Positions 6,490 to 28,325 of a stretch of DNA of 32,000 nucleotides are shown here, piece after piece. A model generated the notes under the pieces. The model did not search any database. It was not told the origin of the DNA and was given only the letters and a program-made list of their open reading frames with translations. The translations under genes and the position numbers were made by a program. The DNA is from Candidatus Methanophagaceae archaeon (GTDB taxonomy: Archaea > Halobacteriota > Syntropharchaeia > Alkanophagales > Methanospirareceae): assembly GCA_003194425.1 (NCBI GenBank), contig PQXB01000001.1, positions 1-32,000 on the forward strand, written 5' to 3'. Position 1 is the stretch's first letter. Every line of letters begins with the position of its first letter.

Positions 6490-7917
6490 ATGAGAGGGTT
6501 CAAAGAGAGGTTGGCGAGGGAAGGGGGGTTAGTAGAGATTGAGCGGGCGGTGTCGTCAAAATACGAGGTTGCGTCGGTTTGTGCAGAGTTGGAGCGGAGA
6601 GGGAATAAAAAACCTGTCTTTTTTCACGCGGTTGACGGCAGGCACAAAGTCCTGACGAACGTGCTGGGCGGGAGAGAGAGGCTGGCGGAGCTGCTGGGAC
6701 TTGGCACCGCTGCCTCCGCTGAGGTCGCACCGTTTTTGGCGAAAGTCGCTGAAGGTGGAAGAGGAGGAGGCAGCGAAGGAGAGGAAGAGGGAGCGAGAAA
6801 GGGAGAGGGAGCGGGAGAGAGAGAGGTGAAAATAGTGGAGGACTCGCCGACGAGGGAAGTAGTCAGCAAGGAGCCGGATTTAAGCGAGTTGCCGATTTTA
6901 ACGCATTTTCACGGCGACGGCGGCGCCTACATCACGGCAGGGGTGGTGGTTGCGGAACTGGACGGCGTGAGGAACGCGTCGTTTCACAGAATGATGGTCT
7001 TGGACGCGAAGAGGCTCGCAGTGCGGCTCGTTCCACCCAGACACCTCTACAAAATGCACCGCGAAGCAGTGGAGCGAGGCGAGGAGTTAAAAGTGGGAAT
7101 CGCGATCGGAGTGGAGCCGTTGGTTCTTTTGGCGGCTGCTACAAGAGTTCCGCCGGGCAAGGAGTTCGAGTACGCGGCGGCGTTAAAAACCCTTTCTTTA
7201 GAAAAGAAAGGTTTGCCAAAGAAAAACGAGTCAGTGGAGCTTTTTAGGTTGAGCAACGGCGTTGCAGTTCCGCACGCAGAATTCGCTTTGGAAGGCTTTT
7301 TAGGCGAAGAGAGAGCGAGAGAGGGTCCGTTTCTGGACCTTACCGGGACTTACGACTGCGTGAGGGAAGAGCCGGTTCTCAGGCTTACGAAGATTTACCA
7401 CCGCAAAGACCCGATTTACCACGCCATTCTTCCCGCGGGTGCGGAGCACAAACTCTTGATGGGTGTGCCTTACGAGCCCTTGATTTTCCGGGCGGTAGAG
7501 CGTGTTGCACGAGTGAAGAATGTGTTTCTAACCGACGGCGGGTGCTGTTACTTGCACGCGGTGGTGCAAATAAAAAAGGAGGGGAAAGGTGGCGAAGGGG
7601 AAGGAGAAGGAGTGGCGAAGAATGCGATTATTTCGGCTCTCGCTGCTCACCCCAGCCTCAAACTCGTCGTCGTTGTTGACACTGACATTGACCTGTTCAA
7701 CCCCGCGGAGGTGGAGTACGCGTTGGCGACGCGGGTGCGGTGGAGTGAGGATTTGGTGCTAATTCCTGGTGCGAAGGGCTCGTCGCTTGACCCGTCTTCG
7801 CGAAACGGGCTGACAACAAAAATCGGAATTGACGCCACAAAAGAGACAGGGAGAGGTGAGGAGGCGGGCGGAGGCGAGGAGGCGGCGAAGAAGTACGAGC
7901 GGGTCGTGACTACTTAA
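6490..7917 (+). CDS. UbiD-family (prenyl-FMN dependent) decarboxylase
   Basis: 475 aa. The UbiD-like N-terminus is FKERLAREGGLVEIERAVSSKYEVASVCAE. Core segments include GAYITAGVVVA..NASFHRMMV and DPIYHAILPAG. Three Gly/Glu-rich low-complexity inserts are present. Confidence 0.8.
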   Translation: MRGFKERLAREGGLVEIERAVSSKYEVASVCAELERRGNKKPVFFHAVDGRHKVLTNVLGGRERLAELLGLGTAASAEVAPFLAKVAEGGRGGGSEGEEEGARKGEGAGEREVKIVEDSPTREVVSKEPDLSELPILTHFHGDGGAYITAGVVVAELDGVRNASFHRMMVLDAKRLAVRLVPPRHLYKMHREAVERGEELKVGIAIGVEPLVLLAAATRVPPGKEFEYAAALKTLSLEKKGLPKKNESVELFRLSNGVAVPHAEFALEGFLGEERAREGPFLDLTGTYDCVREEPVLRLTKIYHRKDPIYHAILPAGAEHKLLMGVPYEPLIFRAVERVARVKNVFLTDGGCCYLHAVVQIKKEGKGGEGEGEGVAKNAIISALAAHPSLKLVVVVDTDIDLFNPAEVEYALATRVRWSEDLVLIPGAKGSSLDPSSRNGLTTKIGIDATKETGRGEEAGGGEEAAKKYERVVTT

Positions 7918-16657: not shown

Positions 16658-17521
16658 TTATTTTAGTTCCTGTGAGTCTTTCACGCCACTGCCGGTAATG
16701 AAAAACTCGCAAGAAGTGTCCTCCGGCATCGAGCGGTGCTTCCTCAGTGTCGCCCGTCTTTTACCTCGCCCCTCCACCGCCTTCTCGAGCTGCACAATCA
16801 CTTTAGAGAGGTGCTCAAGCGAGTAGCCACCAGCGGGTCGTAAATTCCCGTTTCCGACATCAAAATAGACCTGATTCGTGATTAGGACTGCGAGGTCGTG
16901 CTTGCGGGCGATTTCAAGGAGTTGCATTATTTGGTTCGCCAAAACCCGCCGCAGATAAATGCTCCGCTCGTCGTCCAACTCCAACCTGTAGAAGAGCGTG
17001 GCAGAGTCAAGAACCACGAGTGCAACTCGGCTCTCCTCCCCCCGCTTCTCCTTTACCACCGTCTCAATCTCGTTTATGCAGGAGGTCTGCTGCTCAAAAC
17101 TGTGCGGCTCGTAAATTATAATTCTTCGTGCTGCCTCTTCTACATTTTCTACACCTCCTCCTTTCTCTCTCCCTTCTTCTCTCCCTTTCTCTCTCCCTTC
17201 TTTTCTCCCTTCCTCTCTCCCTTCTTCTCTCCCTTCCTCTCTCCCTTCTTCTCTCCCTTCCTCTCTCCCTGCGTCCTCGTTCGTGCTTGAACAACAGGCA
17301 CTGGCGATCTGCAGGAATCGCTCGGGCGAGAAGCCCTCGCTGTCGATAAAAATCACGCTCCTGCCTGCTTTCGCGCATTTTACCGCTGCCTGCAGGCAGA
17401 GGTTCGTCTTTCCGCTGCCTGCCTCGCCGTACAACTGCGTTACGGCGCCGGACTCGAAGCCACCGCCCAGCAGTCTGTCTACGCTCCTGCAGCCGCTGCT
17501 GTATTTCGTGGGAAGTTGCAT
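16658..17521 (-). CDS. radB: RadB recombinase paralog with a roughly 50-aa (EGRE)n insert
   Basis: 287 aa. VDRLLGGGFESGAVTQLYGEAGSGKTNLCLQ (Walker A) and ALVVLDS (Walker B) are present. The insert is AGREEGREEGREEGREEGREEGRKEGREKGREEGREKGGG. Confidence 0.85.
   Translation of the reverse strand: MQLPTKYSSGCRSVDRLLGGGFESGAVTQLYGEAGSGKTNLCLQAAVKCAKAGRSVIFIDSEGFSPERFLQIASACCSSTNEDAGREEGREEGREEGREEGREEGRKEGREKGREEGREKGGGVENVEEAARRIIIYEPHSFEQQTSCINEIETVVKEKRGEESRVALVVLDSATLFYRLELDDERSIYLRRVLANQIMQLLEIARKHDLAVLITNQVYFDVGNGNLRPAGGYSLEHLSKVIVQLEKAVEGRGKRRATLRKHRSMPEDTSCEFFITGSGVKDSQELK
17154..17270. repeat. 117-nt uninterrupted homopyrimidine tract (+ strand) with 12/24-nt periodicity inside radB
   Basis: There is no a or g between 17154 and 17270. 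A perfect 24-mer, ctctcccttcttctctcccttcct, occurs at 17215-17238 and again at 17239-17262. Confidence 0.9.
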
Positions 17522-20267: not shown

Positions 20268-23200
20268 ATGCCAAGAGCAGAAGATGTCAAGAAGGTGCTG
20301 GTAGTCGGGTCGGGTCCGATTCAAATAGGGCAGGCGGCGGAGTTCGACTTCTCGGGCTCGCAGGCGTGCCGTGCGTTGCGGGAAGAGGGAGTGGAGGTGG
20401 TGCTCGTGAATTCCAACCCTGCGACGATAATGACCGATTTTGAGATGGCGGATGTGATTTACATCGAGCCGCTGGTTGCGGATGTGTTGGCGAAGATCGT
20501 GGAGAAGGAGCGACCAGAGGGTATTTTGGCGGGCTTGGGCGGGCAGACGGCACTGAACCTGACCGCGGAGCTGGCAGAGCGGGGCGTGTTGTCAGGCTGT
20601 GGCGTAAAAGTTCTCGGTACGCCTTTAGAAGCCATTTACGACGCCGAAGACCGCGAGCGGTTCAAACAGACGATGAAAAGGATAAACGAGCCGATTCCGC
20701 GGGGCGTTACTGTCAATTCGGTAGCAGAGGCGGAGGTGGCTGCGGCGGAACTGGGACTGCCACTCGTCGTCCGACCTTCTTACACGCTGGGCGGCACGGG
20801 AGGGGGAATTGCGCGGACGCTGGAGGAGTTGCGTGAGACGGTGGCTTACGGGCTGCAAATGTCACGGATTCATCAGGTCTTGGTCGAGGAGAGCGTGCTC
20901 GGGTGGAAGGAAATTGAGTACGAGGTGATGCGGGACGCGAACGACACCTGCATCACGATTTGCAATATGGAGAACCTCGACCCAATGGGAATTCACACTG
21001 GCGAGTCCGTCGTGGTCACGCCGTCGCAGACATTGACCGACGAGGAGCACCAAATGCTGCGGTCCGCGGCGATAAAAATAATTCGTGCGCTGAAGGTTGA
21101 GGGCGGCTGTAATGTTCAGTTCGCACTGCGGAACGGGGAGTACAGAGTAATTGAAGTGAACCCGCGTGTCTCGAGGTCGTCGGCGCTCGCGTCGAAGGCG
21201 ACGGGCTACCCGATTGCGCGGGTCGCGGCGAAGATCGCGATTGGGCTGCATTTGGACGAGATCCAGAACAATGTGACTGCGGAGACGCCTGCGTCTTTTG
21301 AGCCTGCGATTGATTATGTTGTGGTAAAGATTCCGCGGTGGCCGTTTGACAAGTTCCCGAGCGCGGACAGGACGCTGACGACCGCGATGAAGAGCACGGG
21401 CGAGGTGATGGCGATCGGGCGGAGTTTTGAGGAAGCGCTGCAGAAGGCTCTTCGCTCTCTTGACCTTGACGCAGACAAGGGATTTGGTGCGGGGTGGGGG
21501 AGTGAAAGTGAGCCGGGGTGTGGCAGTGAGCCGGGGTGTGGCAGTGAGCCGGGGTGTGGCAGTGAGCCGGGGTGTGGCAGTGAGCCGGGGTGTGGCAGTG
21601 AACGAGAGAAAAGGTCGGAAGCGGAGTTGAGGTGGCTTTTAGAAACGCCGACCGACGAGCGGATTTTTGCGATTTACGAGGCTTTGAAACGGAAACAAGA
21701 ACAGGAACAAGGACAGGGGTTTAGCGTTGAGGAGGTTGCGGAGCTGAGTGGCATCGACAAGTTTTTCATAAAGAAAATTGCGAAGATTGTGGAGTTGGAG
21801 GGGAAGTTAAAAGAGAAAGGGAGAGAGAGAGAAAAAGAGAGAGAGAACAGGGATCTGGAGGGGAATTTGAGGGAGGCGAAGCGGTTGGGGTTCAGCGACG
21901 AGCGAATTGGTGCGCTGACTGGGCGAAGCCGAGAGGAGGTGAGCGACATAAGAAGGAGAGCGGGCGTTCTTCCGACTTACAAAATGGTCGACACCTGCGC
22001 GGCGGAGTTCGAGGCGAAGACGCCCTACTTCTACTCCTGCTACGAGACGGAGTGCGAACTGAAGCCGTCGCAGTCGAGACGGAAAAAGATCCTGATCGTC
22101 GGTGCGGGTCCGATTCGGATTGGGCAGGGAATCGAGTTCGACTACTGCACCGTGCACGCGGTCAAGGCGCTAAAGGAGGAGGGAATCGAGGCACACATCA
22201 TAAACAACAACCCCGAGACCGTTTCCACAGACTACGACACCTCGGACAAGCTCTTCTTTGAGCCGCTGACGCTTGAGGATGTAGTGAATGTGGTGGAGAA
22301 AGAGGGCTACGACGGCGTGATGCTGCAGTTCGGCGGTCAGACCTCTGTGAATTTGGCGGTACCGCTGAAGCGCGAACTTGAGCGGCTGGGGTTGGGGAGG
22401 GGGGAGGCGAAGATGAAAACGAAGACCGTGATTCTGGGGACAGACCCCGAGAAAATAGATGTCGCAGAGGACAGGGAGCGGTTCAGCAAGTTCCTCCGCC
22501 GTCTCGGAATTCCGCAGGCTGACAGCGGCTACGCAACTTCGGCAGCGGAAGCGAGGGAAGTAGCCGAGCGGATTGGGTTTCCTGTGCTTGTCCGCCCTTC
22601 TTACGTGCTGGGCGGGCGGGCGATGGAAATCGTGCACGACGAGGACGAACTGGCGAGGTACATTCGAGAGGCGGTGCGGGTCTCGAAGGAGAAGCCGGTG
22701 CTGATTGACAGGTTCTTGGAGAAAGCGACTGAAATCGATGTGGACGCAGTCTGCGACGGCGAGGAGGTTCTAATCGGCGCGGTGATGGAGCATATTGAGG
22801 AGGCGGGCGTTCATTCCGGCGACTCTGCCTGCGTTATTCCACCACAGTCGTTGTCCGCGGAGGTCTTGGCGACGGTGCGGGACTACGTGCGGCGAATCGC
22901 AGTAGGGTTGGAGATAAAAGGGCTGCTCAACATTCAAATGGCTGCCAAAGACGGCGTGGTCTTCGTGCTTGAGGTGAACCCGCGGTCGAGCAGGACAATT
23001 CCGTTCGTTGCGAAAGCGACAGGAATTCCGCTTGCGAAGCTCGCGGCGAAAGTGATGCTCGGGCACAAACTGCAGGAGTTGGGTTCGGCAGTGCAGGAGT
23101 TGGGTTCGGCAGTGCAGGAGTTGGGTTCGGCAGTGCAGGAGTTGGGTTCGGCAGGCGCGAGCGTCGGCGTTAAGGGCAAAGAACGCGAGCCGGGGCAAGG

Positions 23201-23789
23201 GCATGTCGCGGTGAAGGAGGTCGTGCTGCCGTTCTTGAAGTTGAAGGGCGTTGACACGATTTTGGGTCCCGAGATGAAGAGCACGGGCGAGGTGATGGGA
23301 ATAGACGACGACTTCGGTAAGGCGTTCTTCAAGTCCGAACTCGCGGCTTACAACCCCCTGCCTCTCGATTCGGGCAGCACGGTCTTTATTTCGGTCTGCG
23401 AGGCAGACAAAGAGGGAGTGGTGGAAGTTGCACGGAAGTTGAAGGAGGCGGGACTGTCTGTTGTCGGCACAGAGGGGACTGTGGAATGTCTGCGGCGGTG
23501 CGGGATTGCCGCTCAGAGCCTGAGGAAGTTGCACGAGGAGCACGAGGGGGTGCCGAATGTTGTAGAAATGATGCGGTTGCGGGAGGTGAAATTAGTGATA
23601 AACACACCCACAGACAAGCAGTCCTACAAGGACGGCTACCAGATTCGACGGGCTTGCATTGACCTCGGAATCCCGTACATCACGACGATGCAGGCGGCGA
23701 GCGCGGCTGCGGACGCGATATTGGGCGTGAAAACATTCGGACGGAGGGGAGGGGTTGAGGTGAAGTCAGTGAACGAGTATTTCAAATAA
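20268..23789 (+). CDS. carB: Carbamoyl-phosphate synthase large subunit (fused, full length)
   Basis: 1173 aa. It has two ATP-grasp halves (VLVVGSGPIQIGQAAEFDFSG and ILIVGAGPIRIGQGIEFDYC). VDTCAAEF, LGPEMKSTGEVMG and an MGS-like C-terminus are present. No carA is adjacent. Confidence 0.95.
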   Translation: MPRAEDVKKVLVVGSGPIQIGQAAEFDFSGSQACRALREEGVEVVLVNSNPATIMTDFEMADVIYIEPLVADVLAKIVEKERPEGILAGLGGQTALNLTAELAERGVLSGCGVKVLGTPLEAIYDAEDRERFKQTMKRINEPIPRGVTVNSVAEAEVAAAELGLPLVVRPSYTLGGTGGGIARTLEELRETVAYGLQMSRIHQVLVEESVLGWKEIEYEVMRDANDTCITICNMENLDPMGIHTGESVVVTPSQTLTDEEHQMLRSAAIKIIRALKVEGGCNVQFALRNGEYRVIEVNPRVSRSSALASKATGYPIARVAAKIAIGLHLDEIQNNVTAETPASFEPAIDYVVVKIPRWPFDKFPSADRTLTTAMKSTGEVMAIGRSFEEALQKALRSLDLDADKGFGAGWGSESEPGCGSEPGCGSEPGCGSEPGCGSEPGCGSEREKRSEAELRWLLETPTDERIFAIYEALKRKQEQEQGQGFSVEEVAELSGIDKFFIKKIAKIVELEGKLKEKGREREKERENRDLEGNLREAKRLGFSDERIGALTGRSREEVSDIRRRAGVLPTYKMVDTCAAEFEAKTPYFYSCYETECELKPSQSRRKKILIVGAGPIRIGQGIEFDYCTVHAVKALKEEGIEAHIINNNPETVSTDYDTSDKLFFEPLTLEDVVNVVEKEGYDGVMLQFGGQTSVNLAVPLKRELERLGLGRGEAKMKTKTVILGTDPEKIDVAEDRERFSKFLRRLGIPQADSGYATSAAEAREVAERIGFPVLVRPSYVLGGRAMEIVHDEDELARYIREAVRVSKEKPVLIDRFLEKATEIDVDAVCDGEEVLIGAVMEHIEEAGVHSGDSACVIPPQSLSAEVLATVRDYVRRIAVGLEIKGLLNIQMAAKDGVVFVLEVNPRSSRTIPFVAKATGIPLAKLAAKVMLGHKLQELGSAVQELGSAVQELGSAVQELGSAGASVGVKGKEREPGQGHVAVKEVVLPFLKLKGVDTILGPEMKSTGEVMGIDDDFGKAFFKSELAAYNPLPLDSGSTVFISVCEADKEGVVEVARKLKEAGLSVVGTEGTVECLRRCGIAAQSLRKLHEEHEGVPNVVEMMRLREVKLVINTPTDKQSYKDGYQIRRACIDLGIPYITTMQAASAAADAILGVKTFGRRGGVEVKSVNEYFK
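21507..21596. repeat. In-frame perfect tandem repeat 5 x 18 nt (agtgagccggggtgtggc = SEPGCG) in the carB oligomerisation domain
   Basis: Five identical 18-mers start at 21507, 21525, 21543, 21561 and 21579. Confidence 0.95.
23071..23154. repeat. In-frame perfect tandem repeat 4 x 21 nt (tgcaggagttgggttcggcag = QELGSAV) in carB
   Basis: Four identical 21-mers start at 23071, 23092, 23113 and 23134. Confidence 0.95.
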
Positions 23790-24167: not shown

Positions 24168-27100
24168 ATGAGTGCTATGCCAGAGAAGACGAGAATGATG
24201 CAGCAGTACTACGAGGTAAAAAAGAAGCACCGCGACTGCATCGTGCTGTTTCGTGTCGGTGATTTTTACGAGACCTTTGGCGAGGACGCGAAGGTGGCGT
24301 CGAAGGTGCTGAACATTACTTTAACCGCAACTGGGCGGGGTAAAGGAGCAGCGAGGAGAATTCCAATGGCTGGCGTCCCTTTCCACGCCGTAACACCTTA
24401 CATCAAGCAACTCGTGAAGAAGGGCTACAAAGTCGCAATCTGCGAGCAAGTAGAGGGTAAGAAGAACGACAAAAAAGGGAAGAAGGTTGTGCAGCGGGAG
24501 GTCGTGCGTCTGATTACGCCGGGCACGGTGATCGAAGATTCTTTCCTGGAAGAACGGCTCAGCAACTACCTGATGTGCGTGAACATAATGGGTGAGAGAG
24601 AACCCAGGGTCGGAGTTGCGGTCGCTGACGTCTCGACAGGCGAGTTCTTGCTGACCGAGTTGGAAGACGACGCCTCCCACTCGTCGCTGCTAAACGAGGT
24701 GGAGCGGGTGAAGCCTGCGGAGATAATTCTGCCCGAGTCGCTTGAACTCGAACTTGGGCTGGACAGTAGCCAGTCTAGCTTGAAGAGGCAGGAGGGGTGC
24801 ACGGTCTCCCGCTACGACGACTACTACTTCGACTACAAGAACGCCTACACGACGCTGCTAAACCATTTTGGAGTAATTTCGTTGGACGGCTTCGGGTGCG
24901 GTGGCGGTGGCAGAGGCAGGGAGTTCAGAGCAGGAGTAACAGCCGCGGGTGCCGTGATTTCTTACCTACGCGAGACGCAGAAGAAGGTGCTCTCGCACAT
25001 TAAACCGCCCAAGACATTCTGGGTCTCGGATTTTATGATTTTAGACAGCGTTACTGTTCGCAACCTCGAAATCTTTAACAACATTCGCGACGGGACGCAA
25101 CGAGGGACGCTCGTTAGCGTGCTTGACAAGACGCTGACTGGAATGGGCTCACGGCGGTTGCGGAAGGCTCTGCAGTTCCCCCTGCTCGACACCCGCGAGA
25201 TAAAACGCAGGCAGGAGGTGGTGGGCGAGTTTTTTGCGGACATTCTGCTGCGGGAATCGTTAAAGGAGGTTCTCAAGGAGATTTACGACCTCGAGCGAAT
25301 TGTTAGCCGTGTCTCGTACGGAAATGCGAACGCACGGGACTTGGTCTCGCTGAAGCGGAGTTTAGAGCAGTTCTCGACGCTGCGGGAGGTCTTGAAGGGC
25401 TGCCGCTCGGAGAAGATAAAAGAGGGGTTGCGGACTTCTTTGAGGTCTTCTTCAAGCGACCTCGGCTTCGGTGAAATTGTGGATTTGGTGGAGCGGAGCA
25501 TCGTGGAGGAGCCGCCGGCGACGGTGAAGGAGGGAGGGTTGGTGAAGGCTGGGTTCAACGCCGAGTTGGACGAGTTGAGGAAAATAAAGAGCGAGGGGCG
25601 GAGGTGGTTGGCGGAGTTTGAGGGTCGCGAAAAGGCACGAACAGGAATAAAATCGCTTAAGGTCGGCTACAACAAGGTCTTTGGCTACTACCTCGAAGTG
25701 CGGAGGGCGTGGCTCGGGAAAAGGAAAGTGCCTGCCTCTTACACCAGGAAGCAGACGCTCACAGAGGCGGAGCGGTTCGTTACCGAGGAGTTGAAGAACT
25801 ACGAGGCGAAGGCGTTGAGCGCGGAGGAGCGGATAAAAGAGTTGGAGTACGAATTGTTCGAGCAGGTTAGGAAGGCGGTTGCGAAGCGGGCGAAGGAGAT
25901 TCAGGAGGCTGCGGATTTCATCGCCGAGTTGGACACGCTTCTGGCTTTTGCCGAGGTCGCTGCCGAGAACGGGTACTGCTGCCCTGAAGTGAGCGGTGAG
26001 GGAGGTGAAATCGTAGTGAAAGAGGGGAGGCACCCGGTAGTGGAGCGGGAGGTGAAGGAGGGCTTCGTGCCGAACGACGCTCGGCTCGACGAAAACAATC
26101 GGCTGATGATTCTCACGGGTCCAAATATGAGCGGGAAATGTATTGGTCCAGAAACACTGATTTTTACCGAGTGTGGTCTTCTGCCACTTTTGAAATTCAA
26201 ACCTGCGGGAATAAAGAAGGGAGAGTTCAAAGACCTCGAGGTGTGTCTGTGCGGAGAAGACGGAATTGAGCGAACCTCAAAATTTTACTACGACGGCAGG
26301 AGAAAGACCGTGAAAATAACGACACGGCTCGGATACACAATCGAAGGAACAGAGGAGCACAGAATTTTGGTGAGGGAAAAGGAGGAAAAAGGAAATCACT
26401 GGAAGCGACTGGGCGATTTGAAAACAGGCGAATACGCAGTTATAAATCGTGGGATGGATTTTTGGGGAACCGAGACCAAAATAGAGGCGAAGAGAATAAA
26501 AAGGCACTACCACTTTAATACGAAAAAATACAGAGTGCCGAGTGAGTTGGACGAGGACTTGGCTTACTTGCTCGGTCTGCTGATTGGCGACGGCACGCTG
26601 ACTTATAAAAATAGTTTTTCGTTGAGCACTGGAGACGAGTTCGTGGCACGAGAGTTCAGGCAGATAAACAAGAGGCTCTTCGGGAAGGAGGTAGGGCGTA
26701 AAAAGAACGGCAAGGACTACTTCGTCTCAAGCCTATTTTTGCGGGACTTTTTCTTTGACCTGGGCGTCGGCTACCAGGACGCGTGCCACAAGGAAGTTCC
26801 AGAGTGCATTCTCGCAGCACCAAAAGAGATTGTAAGGGCGTTCTTGCAGGGGCTCTTCGACACCGACGGCTACGCGGACGCGAAATACGGGAACGTGAGC
26901 GTCTCCAGTTCCTCAAAGAAGATCGCAGAGCAGTTGCACGTGCTGCTGCTGAATTTCGGGATAATTTCAAGCCTGCGGCGGAAGGAGACGAAGAGGAACG
27001 ATTCTTACACAGTTAGCATTTACGGCGAGAACAGTCTGCGGTTCTACGCCGCGGTAGGGTTCAGGTTGAGGCGGAAAGGGGACAGGGCGTTGTTGGGGAC

Positions 27101-28325
27101 CGATTTGAGAATGCCGAACGTTGATGTTGTTCCTCAAATTGAAGGGAGGTTGAAAAAAATAGAGAAGGAAATAGTGGCGAGGGGAAAGCAGGGTTTGGAG
27201 AGCAGATTGAGGTTAAAGCACAACAAAAGCAGGAGCGGGATATTTTATTCATATTTGAGGCAGGGCAGAAATTTGTCTTACTTCAAACTCAAGCAACTCC
27301 TCGACTACTGCGAGCGGTTAGGGGTTGAGTGCGGGGAATTGGAGGAGTTGAAGGGGCTGTTTCAGAGGAACTACTTTTACGACCGGGTGAAGAAAATAGA
27401 GGCGTCAGAATCGGATGTTTACGATTTCACAGTCCCCAAATCGCATTCTTTCGTTGGAAACGGGTTCTTGAACCACAATTCTACTTTTATGCGGCAGACC
27501 GCGTTGGTCGTGCTACTGGCACAGCTCGGCTCGTTCGTGCCTGCGAAGGAAGCGAGGGTGGGGGTGGTGGACAGGATTTTCACGCGGGTCGGGGCTTACG
27601 ACGACCTCTCGATGGGGCAGAGTTCGTTTATGGTCGAGATGAGCGAGACTGCGAATATTCTGAACAACGCGACCGAGCGGAGCCTGATAATTCTCGACGA
27701 AATCGGGCGCGGCACGAGCACACTCGACGGCGTCAGCATCGCGTGGGCGGTTGCAGAGTACGTTCACACCAGGCTGCGGGCGAAGACGATGTTTGCGACG
27801 CACTTCTACGAACTGACCGAGCTCGCTGACTCTGACAGACTTGTGGGGACGAAATGCTACAACGTCTCGATAAAAGAGGTCGGCGACGAGATATTTTTCG
27901 TCAGGAAAGTCGTGCAGGGCAGGGGCTCAAAGAGCTACGGGATTCAGGTCGCGAAGTTGGCGGGGCTGCCCGCGGAGGTGGTGGAGAATGCGAAAGGTAT
28001 TTTGAAGAGGTTGGAGAGTGGGGCAGGGAAGGGAGGACGGAAAAAGGAAGGAGCGGTGGTGGAGGGAGAAAAGGAGGAGGAAGAAAAGGAGGAGGAAGAA
28101 AAGGAGGAGGAAGAAGAGGAAGAGGGAGAAGAGGAAGAGGGAGAAGAGGAAGAGGAGGGGGGAGAAGAGGAGGAGGGAGAAGAGGAAGAGGAGGCGAAGG
28201 CGACGAAGGAACGCGTTGTGCAGGAGCACCCTGTGGTTGCAGAGTTGAAGTCGTTAAATTTGGAGAGGGTTTCGCCGATCGAGGCGTTGAACAAGTTGTA
28301 CGAGATGAAGAGGAGGTTGCGTTGA
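24168..28325 (+). CDS. mutS: DNA mismatch repair protein MutS (bacterial MutS1 type), intein-containing precursor
   Basis: 1385 aa. The N-terminal mismatch-binding domain has MMQQYYEVKKKH...GDFYETFGEDA. The Walker A motif is GPNMSGK / STFMRQ, interrupted by the intein. SSFMVEMSETANIL, LIILDEIGRGTSTLDG, ATHFYELT and SYGIQVAKLAGLP are present. The C-terminal helix is SPIEALNKLYEMK. Confidence 0.9.
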   Translation: MSAMPEKTRMMQQYYEVKKKHRDCIVLFRVGDFYETFGEDAKVASKVLNITLTATGRGKGAARRIPMAGVPFHAVTPYIKQLVKKGYKVAICEQVEGKKNDKKGKKVVQREVVRLITPGTVIEDSFLEERLSNYLMCVNIMGEREPRVGVAVADVSTGEFLLTELEDDASHSSLLNEVERVKPAEIILPESLELELGLDSSQSSLKRQEGCTVSRYDDYYFDYKNAYTTLLNHFGVISLDGFGCGGGGRGREFRAGVTAAGAVISYLRETQKKVLSHIKPPKTFWVSDFMILDSVTVRNLEIFNNIRDGTQRGTLVSVLDKTLTGMGSRRLRKALQFPLLDTREIKRRQEVVGEFFADILLRESLKEVLKEIYDLERIVSRVSYGNANARDLVSLKRSLEQFSTLREVLKGCRSEKIKEGLRTSLRSSSSDLGFGEIVDLVERSIVEEPPATVKEGGLVKAGFNAELDELRKIKSEGRRWLAEFEGREKARTGIKSLKVGYNKVFGYYLEVRRAWLGKRKVPASYTRKQTLTEAERFVTEELKNYEAKALSAEERIKELEYELFEQVRKAVAKRAKEIQEAADFIAELDTLLAFAEVAAENGYCCPEVSGEGGEIVVKEGRHPVVEREVKEGFVPNDARLDENNRLMILTGPNMSGKCIGPETLIFTECGLLPLLKFKPAGIKKGEFKDLEVCLCGEDGIERTSKFYYDGRRKTVKITTRLGYTIEGTEEHRILVREKEEKGNHWKRLGDLKTGEYAVINRGMDFWGTETKIEAKRIKRHYHFNTKKYRVPSELDEDLAYLLGLLIGDGTLTYKNSFSLSTGDEFVAREFRQINKRLFGKEVGRKKNGKDYFVSSLFLRDFFFDLGVGYQDACHKEVPECILAAPKEIVRAFLQGLFDTDGYADAKYGNVSVSSSSKKIAEQLHVLLLNFGIISSLRRKETKRNDSYTVSIYGENSLRFYAAVGFRLRRKGDRALLGTDLRMPNVDVVPQIEGRLKKIEKEIVARGKQGLESRLRLKHNKSRSGIFYSYLRQGRNLSYFKLKQLLDYCERLGVECGELEELKGLFQRNYFYDRVKKIEASESDVYDFTVPKSHSFVGNGFLNHNSTFMRQTALVVLLAQLGSFVPAKEARVGVVDRIFTRVGAYDDLSMGQSSFMVEMSETANILNNATERSLIILDEIGRGTSTLDGVSIAWAVAEYVHTRLRAKTMFATHFYELTELADSDRLVGTKCYNVSIKEVGDEIFFVRKVVQGRGSKSYGIQVAKLAGLPAEVVENAKGILKRLESGAGKGGRKKEGAVVEGEKEEEEKEEEEKEEEEEEEGEEEEGEEEEEGGEEEEGEEEEEAKATKERVVQEHPVVAELKSLNLERVSPIEALNKLYEMKRRLR
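26139..27479 (+). mobile_element. Class 1 intein with LAGLIDADG homing endonuclease domain (447 codons) in the MutS P-loop
   Basis: It starts at Cys (tgt, 26139) right after GPNMSGK and ends ...FVGNGFLNHN (aat, 27477-27479), followed by Ser+1 (STFMRQ). Block B is GYTIEGTEEHRILV. The LAGLIDADG motifs are LAYLLGLLIGDGTL and FLQGLFDTDGYAD. Sampled intein lines have 24-28 G+C per 60 nt against 39-40 in flanking mutS lines. Confidence 0.9.
28061..28194. repeat. 134-nt uninterrupted homopurine tract near the mutS 3' end encoding a poly-Glu/Lys/Gly linker
   Basis: There is no c or t from 28061 to 28194. It encodes EKEEEEKEEEEKEEEEEEEGEEEEGEEEEEGGEEEEGEEEEE. Internal 15-nt (aaggaggaggaagaa) and 18-nt periodicities are visible. 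Confidence 0.9.

Follow-up and report, generated by a model that had tools for sequence, protein, structure and literature searches.

The mutS gene in a 32,000-nucleotide stretch of DNA from a Methanophagales (ANME-1) archaeon (contig PQXB01000001.1, positions 1 to 32,000; the window in what follows) raises a simple question: why does a mismatch repair protein carry 447 extra codons inside its nucleotide-binding loop? The original prediction, made from the letters alone, was that these codons (26139-27479) are an intein that splits the Walker A P-loop of MutS. They do split it there, and their removal in silico gives a 938-amino-acid protein with an unbroken Walker A loop, GPNMSGKSTFMRQ. As set out below, the element is very probably a standard class 1 intein in the Walker A loop of an ANME-1 MutS1, one that splices, that homed into this position and that is now at a post-fixation stage. 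The host gene and its parts are as follows.

24168..28325, + strand: open reading frame (ORF) of the MutS1 precursor, uninterrupted, 1385 amino acids with the intein, MutS domains I-V, stop codon TGA at 28323-28325.
24168..26138, + strand: N-extein, 657 amino acids, with the C-terminal sequence ...ILTGPNMSGK, which is the Walker A loop through its Lys.
26139..27479, + strand: predicted class 1 intein with a nested LAGLIDADG endonuclease, 447 amino acids from CIGPETLIF to FVGNGFLNHN, precursor codons 658-1104.
27480..28325, + strand: C-extein, 281 amino acids from Ser+1 (STFMRQ...), with the remainder of MutS domain V and the C-terminal dimerisation region.

To judge from its profile matches, the host gene is a genuine MutS1. 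In an NCBIfam profile search, the two MutS halves scored 1009.9 bits against the NF003810 equivalog (cut-off 480) and 938.7 bits against TIGR01070 (cut-off 641.7), and all of the Pfam profiles MutS_I to MutS_V were matched in the exteins. The protein is identical to NCBI PXF50888.1 (1385 amino acids), which comes from a 1.19-Mb contig of a Methanophagales (ANME-1) metagenome-assembled genome (MAG) and is annotated plainly as 'DNA mismatch repair protein MutS'. The insert lies between ...LMILTGPNMSGK upstream and STFMRQTALVV... downstream. It is in frame and interrupts the bond between the Walker A Lys and the following Ser (Lys657-Ser658 of MutS), reading GPNMSGK/C...HN/STFMRQ, where the slashes mark the junctions.

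Within the insert, the following parts can be assigned.

26139..26468, + strand: Hint N-terminal half, intein residues 1-110, with block A (Cys1) and block B.
26331-26372, + strand: block B, GYTIEGTEEHRILV, with T71 and H74 (T71-E-E-H74).
26544..27053, + strand: LAGLIDADG endonuclease core, intein residues 136-305.
26553-26600, + strand: LAGLIDADG motif 1, LAYLLGLLIGDGT, residues 141-153 (LAYLLGLLIGD151G), with predicted catalytic D151.
26826-26876, + strand: LAGLIDADG motif 2, RAFLQGLFDTDGY, residues 233-245 (FLQGLFDTD243G), with predicted catalytic D243.
Within 26970-26996, + strand: conserved K282 of the endonuclease core.
27054..27368, + strand: putative helical accessory (DNA-binding) domain, residues 306-410, the part with the lowest model confidence; the domain concept is taken from PMC8966425.
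27369..27479, + strand: Hint C-terminal half, residues 411-447, with blocks F and G.
Within 27369..27479, + strand: block F, SDVYDFTVPKSHSFVG, with D429 and H436, and block G, NGFLNHN, with H446 and N447.

The class 1 hallmarks that had been listed for the insert (Cys1, block B TEEH, terminal His-Asn and Ser+1) are all present, and the two LAGLIDADG motifs that had been reported fall at residues 141-153 and 233-245. The splicing set is complete (Cys1, T71, H74, D429, H436, H446, N447 and Ser+1). Against intein profiles, the insert matched Pfam Intein_splicing (E = 3.8e-15; 56.5 bits, cut-off 35.8) and LAGLIDADG_3 (E = 2e-23; 82.9 bits, cut-off 22.5), the isolated insert matched TIGR01445 for the intein N-terminal region (25.1 bits, cut-off 24.5), and TIGR01443 for the C-terminal region was matched at 28.9 bits (cut-off 15.6). 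All four are above cut-off, and the combined motif and profile signal is far beyond chance. Class 2 is ruled out by Cys1, and class 3 by block F, which has Asp rather than Cys.

A model of the intein, predicted by AlphaFold with an alignment of 11 inteins from the same site of MutS as input, had a predicted local distance difference test score (pLDDT) of 88.1 and a predicted template-modelling score (pTM) of 0.88. It contains a beta-rich Hint domain, with the Hint fold assembled from N- and C-terminal segments (residues 1-103 and 412-446), a LAGLIDADG core, and a helical stretch of lower confidence at residues 306-410. With the model as Foldseek query, the top match was the TliVMA intein (7qss; E = 4e-29, template-modelling score normalised to the query (TMq) 0.71), followed by the PhoVMA, PI-PkoII, PI-PfuI and PI-SceI inteins and the free-standing endonuclease I-DmoI; the intein structures matched include 7qss, 1dq3, 1vde and 1am2. 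The predicted core has the pseudo-dimeric alpha-beta-beta-alpha-beta-beta-alpha fold and matches I-DmoI (score normalised to the target (TMt) ~0.7), I-Tsp061I and the endonuclease domains of PI-PfuI and PI-SceI. A phmmer search of solved structures likewise placed the Thermococcus and Pyrococcus VMA inteins first (E = 1.6e-22), then PI-PkoII and PI-PfuI. Because of the Pfam and NCBIfam matches, the intact catalytic residues, the confident model and the Foldseek matches to known inteins, we assign the insert as a canonical and, as far as its sequence and predicted fold can tell, complete class 1 intein with a single-chain, two-motif LAGLIDADG homing endonuclease.

The TliVMA and PhoVMA inteins of A/V-ATPase subunit A (7qss, 7qsu, 7qst) are thus the best solved matches by both sequence and fold. 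Their VMA-b site lies in a P-loop, and they consist of a HINT domain, a homing endonuclease (HEN) and an accessory domain (Beyer et al. 2022, PMC8966425). The MutS intein resembles them in both the P-loop insertion and the combination of Hint, LAGLIDADG endonuclease and accessory domain. It differs in its host, which is MutS and not an ATP synthase, and the identity in the fold alignment is 20-23%. In the same comparison, the +1 residue of the MutS intein is Ser; its residues 306-410 do not align with the VMA inteins, and the phmmer match stops at residue 302. We infer that this stretch is an accessory domain of the type described in PMC8966425.

Following established intein chemistry, the 1385-amino-acid precursor would be unable to form the nucleotide-binding loop. 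Cys1 would be converted to a thioester through an N-S acyl shift, and attack by Ser+1 would give a branched ester. Cyclisation of Asn447, aided by His446, His436 and Asp429, would then free the 447-amino-acid intein, and an O-N shift would leave a native Lys-Ser bond in an active 938-amino-acid MutS. Because the intein splits the Walker A loop, mismatch repair would depend on splicing. In a cell with an intein-free mutS allele, the endonuclease would recognise and cut the P-loop-coding DNA, and recombinational repair from the occupied allele would copy the intein in (homing).

How common is the insert among close relatives? With the spliced extein as query, the best 120 clusters were ANME-1 MutS at 69-80% identity. 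All but one of these listed clusters (119/120) were without the intein domain and had lengths of 781-889 amino acids (~860 when complete); the sole carrier was the window's own cluster. The spliced 938-amino-acid protein aligned end to end with the intein-free ANME-1 MutS, and the suggestion that the 447 codons are a normal MutS domain is ruled out by the 119 clusters that do not have them. The window's cluster (90% identity) has 20 members of ~1350-1385 amino acids and one 93-amino-acid fragment, from NCBI, ENA and JGI sources. The intein also occurs on JGI metagenome contigs (98-99% identity) and is present in every sampled allele of the window's lineage.

A Glu-rich low-complexity tail (EEEEK/EEEEG repeats, 28061-28194) lies in the MutS C-extein directly ahead of the C-terminal dimerisation helix. 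Its length varies between otherwise near-identical strains, which explains most of the full-length range of the cluster (1348-1385 amino acids).

An assembly or binning artefact that fused MutS to foreign DNA would also produce an apparent insert, and both the MAG source and an intein G+C content below that of its flanks could be read in that way. The junctions are not such an artefact, because the same ones recur in the separately assembled NCBI, ENA and JGI data. The insert is moreover exactly in frame, its removal leaves a perfect P-loop, and 67 other genomes have homologous inserts at the same codon boundary. An artefact is barely conceivable.

The empty allele in intein-free ANME-1 (L082 and L083) reads GTTATCACGGGACCGAATATGAGTGGAAAA/TCAACTTTCATGCGTCAAACGGCTTTAATC, and another reading of the empty site in an intein-free ANME-1 relative is ...ATCACGGGACCGAATATGAGTGGAAAA/TCAACTTTCATGCGTCAAACG.... 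Comparison with the empty allele gives the two halves of a predicted homing site, the extent of recognition being an estimate.

26109..26138, + strand: left half of the predicted homing site, ATTCTCACGGGTCCAAATATGAGCGGGAAA.
27480..27509, + strand: right half of the predicted homing site, TCTACTTTTATGCGGCAGACCGCGTTGGTC.

The neighbours of mutS differ in the closest intein-free ANME-1 genome, and the comparison of filled and empty sites is therefore at gene level only. The parsimonious reading is a single gain in a narrow ANME-1 lineage. The distribution has the features of a mobile intein: sporadic spread, close host relatives with empty sites, and distant hosts with related inteins.

These distant hosts were found in a scan of GTDB with one genome per species, which returned 215 intein relatives, of which 80 loci were retained. 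An intein occupies the identical position of MutS in at least 66 GTDB species representatives among these 80 loci, and in one Lokiarchaeota MAG. The consensus junction is GPNMxGK/C...HN/S[TV]xxRQ; the inteins have the same domain order as the ANME-1 copy and are 38-50% identical to it over the full length. In a protein search with the intein, the closest relatives (41-50% full-length identity) were all in MutS, with hosts among Anaerolineae and other Chloroflexota, Lokiarchaeota, Fimbriimonadales and Marithioploca. Archaeal hosts at this site include Asgard archaea (Hodarchaeota, Promethearchaeota, Lokiarchaeota), Woesearchaeota, Methanosarcinales and several unclassified archaea. Bacterial hosts include many Chloroflexota, together with Acidobacteriota, Armatimonadota, Latescibacterota, Poribacteria, Bipolaricaulota, Thermotogae and Fraserbacteria, and among the Gammaproteobacteria Thiocystis, Parabeggiatoa and the cultured Chromatium okenii DSM 169. 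A neighbour-joining tree places the ANME-1 copy on a long branch within an archaeal clade. The history we propose would begin with horizontal transfer into one narrow ANME-1 lineage, probably from another archaeon.

Some same-site inteins are shorter (364-372 amino acids, against ~437-448 elsewhere): L062, L063 and L068 from Armatimonadota, L064 from Poribacteria and L072 from Chromatium okenii DSM 169. Presumably these carry deletions in the endonuclease or accessory region.

As to viral vectors, relatives in IMG/VR are at most 35% identical over the whole intein, and no MutS host was found among them. The junctions called for these viral loci by regular expression were crude and had no further part in the analysis. 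One viral contig (L142, IMGVR_UViG_3300032163_000028) has 46% identity to intein residues 218-313, and its downstream junction, ...HN/STLLRY..., resembles a MutS C-extein.

Outside MutS, the next closest relatives (26-37% identity) are found in other P-loop ATPases, namely PhoH, DnaB, RuvB, cob(I)alamin adenosyltransferase (CobA), and clamp-loader-like and RecA-like proteins, at the same bond after the Walker A Lys. The nearest of these are the PhoH inteins, which are 33-37% identical over the full 447 amino acids and interrupt the equivalent bond (GPAGTGK/C...NHN/TY), but which differ in having another ATPase as host, Thr at +1 and a bacterial origin. PhoH is a bacterial intein host in the survey of Novikova et al. 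2016 (PMC4760082). More distant homologues (26-35%) at DnaB site b, RFC small subunit site a and MCM site a, and in RuvB, cob(I)alamin adenosyltransferase and RecA-like proteins, share the GK/C...HN/T or S position, in non-orthologous hosts. By sequence and position, the MutS intein is a member of the group of P-loop inteins inserted after the Walker A Lys (VMA-b, PhoH, DnaB). The original prediction had called its homing endonuclease uncharacterised, with which we agree, though it belongs within this known group.

The same prediction suggested that the insertion site itself was undescribed. Our searches of the literature found no description of a prokaryotic MutS intein and no match to the phrase 'MutS intein', and the prokaryotic survey by Novikova et al. 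2016 (PMC4760082) does not name MutS in its main text. The only MutS-family inteins in the searched literature are those in MutS-like proteins of Mimiviridae, of which two are described (Green et al. 2018, PMC5784728); for MutS inteins, a MutS-family paper of 2024 refers to giant viruses only. The one from Moumouvirus Monve (AEX62724) is also of the Cys1...HN LAGLIDADG type. Its host, however, is a giant-virus MutS-like protein, and its junction, ...NSKMNKKAR/C, has no GK P-loop; as this N-extein junction is outside a P-loop, the viral intein is ruled out as the same allele. It was also absent among the relatives returned for the window intein in the protein search. NCBIfam has exception models that cover intein-containing GyrA, RtcB, Tes and RecA, and no MutS equivalent was matched. 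So MutS is indeed unlisted as a prokaryotic host in the literature searched, while the site is anything but rare in the data: with so many public MutS inteins at the same position (at least 66 GTDB species), the suggestion of novelty is only half right and the call of an intein stands, an outcome that the original prediction had allowed for. The MutS P-loop site is common in public data, uncurated, and unpublished as far as searched.

One consequence can be seen in the databases. Five NCBI MAG proteins begin at the P-loop Met (MSGKC or MAGKC), which is to say that their gene calls are truncated, and they are named 'LAGLIDADG family homing endonuclease', 'MutS-related protein' or 'hypothetical protein'. 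On all five contigs (L001, L008, L018, L019 and L027) there is a stop-to-stop frame of 1291-1447 codons; for the Lokiarchaeota contig L001 (4120-7983), the ORF list gives 1287 amino acids.

The intein also differs from its host gene in base composition. Its G+C content is 48.5%, against 55.7% and 56.8% for the exteins, and its G+C content at third codon positions (GC3) is 0.63, against 0.72 and 0.73. Among windows of equal length in the 32-kb stretch, it lies at the 10th percentile. The original prediction had the direction of this contrast right but gave 24-28 G+C per sampled 60-nucleotide line in the intein and 39-40 in the flanks; over all lines, the intein has a mean of 29.1 (range 24-39) and the exteins 33.8 (range 26-41), and the ranges overlap.

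Which parts of the element are kept by selection? Among the 68 same-site inteins, C1, H74, D429, H446 and N447 are invariant (68/68). The endonuclease Asp residues are less so: D151 is kept in 63 and D243 in 64, both are intact in 61, and at least one is lost in 7. Loss of endonuclease activity together with its Asp residues has been reported for PhoVMA (PMC8966425), and the decay in 7 of the 68 MutS inteins is of the same kind.

Polymorphism within ANME-1 was read from 14 aligned cluster members for the protein and from four alleles for the DNA. The 447-amino-acid intein has 14 variable sites, all within residues 98-406 and 11 of them at 324-406 in the putative accessory domain; none of the 14 is in a splicing block. 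The exteins outside the repetitive tail have 6 variable sites in ~850 residues. At the DNA level, the exteins showed 16 synonymous to 5 non-synonymous changes, and the intein 5 to 15 (Fisher p = 0.0017). The ratio of non-synonymous to synonymous polymorphism (pN/pS) was 0.09 for the N-extein, 0.16 for the C-extein and 0.83 for the intein. This suggests that the exteins are constrained and that the intein is close to neutral within the ANME-1 population.

An insert that had lost splicing, with mutS effectively a pseudogene in this lineage, is highly unlikely given these data. Every splicing residue is intact and invariant, the frame is open across the 1385 codons and open in all 14 aligned cluster members, and the extein pN/pS of 0.09-0.16 indicates strong purifying selection, which is not expected of a dead gene and which lends splicing indirect support.

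The state of the endonuclease is harder to judge. One sister allele (L152, DRAF01000104.1, HDN68360.1) carries D243A. The same assembly has clustered multi-nucleotide substitutions at residues 324-326 (RMP to SRT), 371-372 (SY to AG) and 389, which might be real divergence, gene conversion or assembly noise. If the endonuclease of the window copy were already inactive, the element would be an immobile relic that merely splices. The D243A allele is consistent with this, as are the intein pN/pS of ~0.8, the confinement of amino acid polymorphism to the endonuclease and accessory region, and the precedent of PhoVMA, where activity went with the Asp residues at an analogous P-loop site (PMC8966425); moreover, with all sampled alleles of the lineage occupied, no target remains. 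On the other hand, D151, D243 and K282 are all present in the window copy, as are two complete LAGLIDADG helices, the endonuclease core is confidently modelled, and the polymorphism sample is small. We regard an inactive endonuclease as possible but do not favour it. Because both catalytic Asp residues and K282 are kept, the endonuclease of the window copy is possibly active.

Our preferred reading is a standard intein at the post-fixation stage of the homing cycle, in which splicing would be kept by selection on MutS and the endonuclease and accessory part would come under relaxed constraint, drifting once empty targets are gone. Several points weigh against it. The window endonuclease may still be fully active. 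The signal of relaxed selection is based on four DNA sequences, and when the divergent L152 is left out the contrast weakens, with non-synonymous to synonymous counts of 7 to 4 in the intein and 5 to 14 in the exteins (p = 0.06). Splicing and cleavage are predictions from conserved residues. The lower G+C content could come partly from a Lys-rich composition instead of a foreign origin. Finally, a protein search of 5.8 billion sequences, GTDB, IMG/VR and JGI metagenomes found no donor or close relative above 50% identity outside the intein's own lineage, so that no donor can be named. Such absences are not proof in searches seeded by words or patterns: the intein-only protein search missed the window's own cluster, and the GTDB scan missed its own species.

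Could the intein instead be of use to its host? Inteins cluster in P-loops, which has been argued to suggest selective retention (Novikova et al. 2016, PMC4760082). A domesticated regulator, in which conditional splicing (redox, temperature or metal ions) toggles mismatch repair and makes the cell a transient mutator to its benefit, would fit that argument. It would also fit the insertion in the catalytic P-loop, where unspliced MutS is necessarily inactive, and the filling of the same site across two domains, in at least 66 species. Cys1 and three further N-terminal Cys residues (C12, C36 and C38) are a conceivable redox trap. However, C12, C36 and C38 are not conserved among the same-site inteins, which rules out a conserved second Cys as redox partner of Cys1; 119 of the 120 closest listed ANME-1 MutS clusters manage without an intein; and the sporadic spread, with both endonuclease Asp residues in 61 of 68 copies, is the pattern of a selfish mobile element. 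We therefore think a domesticated regulator quite unlikely. In its most specific form, stress (oxidants, heat or metal ions) would stall splicing and deplete MutS, giving a reversible mutator or hyper-recombination state, and this we find very doubtful: the position of the insertion and the breadth of the site's occurrence alone speak for such a switch, and the near-absence of the intein from ANME-1 relatives counts against it. If it were true, selection for the switch would explain why the site recurs among sediment and hydrothermal microbes from two domains.

Other genes in the window contain in-frame repeats. In carB (carbamoyl-phosphate synthase large subunit; ORF 20268-23789, + strand), two perfect in-frame tandem repeats lie between conserved domains: an 18-bp unit repeated 5.3 times at 21507-21601, which encodes GSEPGC repeats, and a 21-bp unit repeated 4 times at 23071-23154, which encodes QELGSAV repeats, both 100% identical. 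A RadB/Rad51-like ATPase (ORF 16658-17521, - strand) has a 12/24-bp repeat array at 17160-17270, not an intein, that encodes (GREE)n over ~45 amino acids and leaves the Rad51 profile match in two parts, residues 6-61 and 140-281. A UbiD-like ORF (6490-7917, + strand), also a housekeeping enzyme, has a G/E-rich repeat insert at 6778-6826. This genome appears to have a general tendency towards in-frame insertions of purine-rich repeats.

To return to the MutS intein, it requires no conceptual change, as the element conforms to the model of the homing cycle. It does expose a recurrent annotation error, in which MutS precursors are called from the P-loop Met as a truncated 'LAGLIDADG homing endonuclease' or as 'hypothetical', and which an intein-aware MutS model would cure. 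The family offers at least 67 natural LAGLIDADG variants against one highly conserved coding sequence of 40-60 bp, a potential resource for the study and engineering of target specificity, and one carrier, Chromatium okenii DSM 169, is a cultured strain that could serve for experiments. More generally, MutS1 joins the P-loop ATPases that bear inteins, as a host protein not discussed for prokaryotes in the literature searched.

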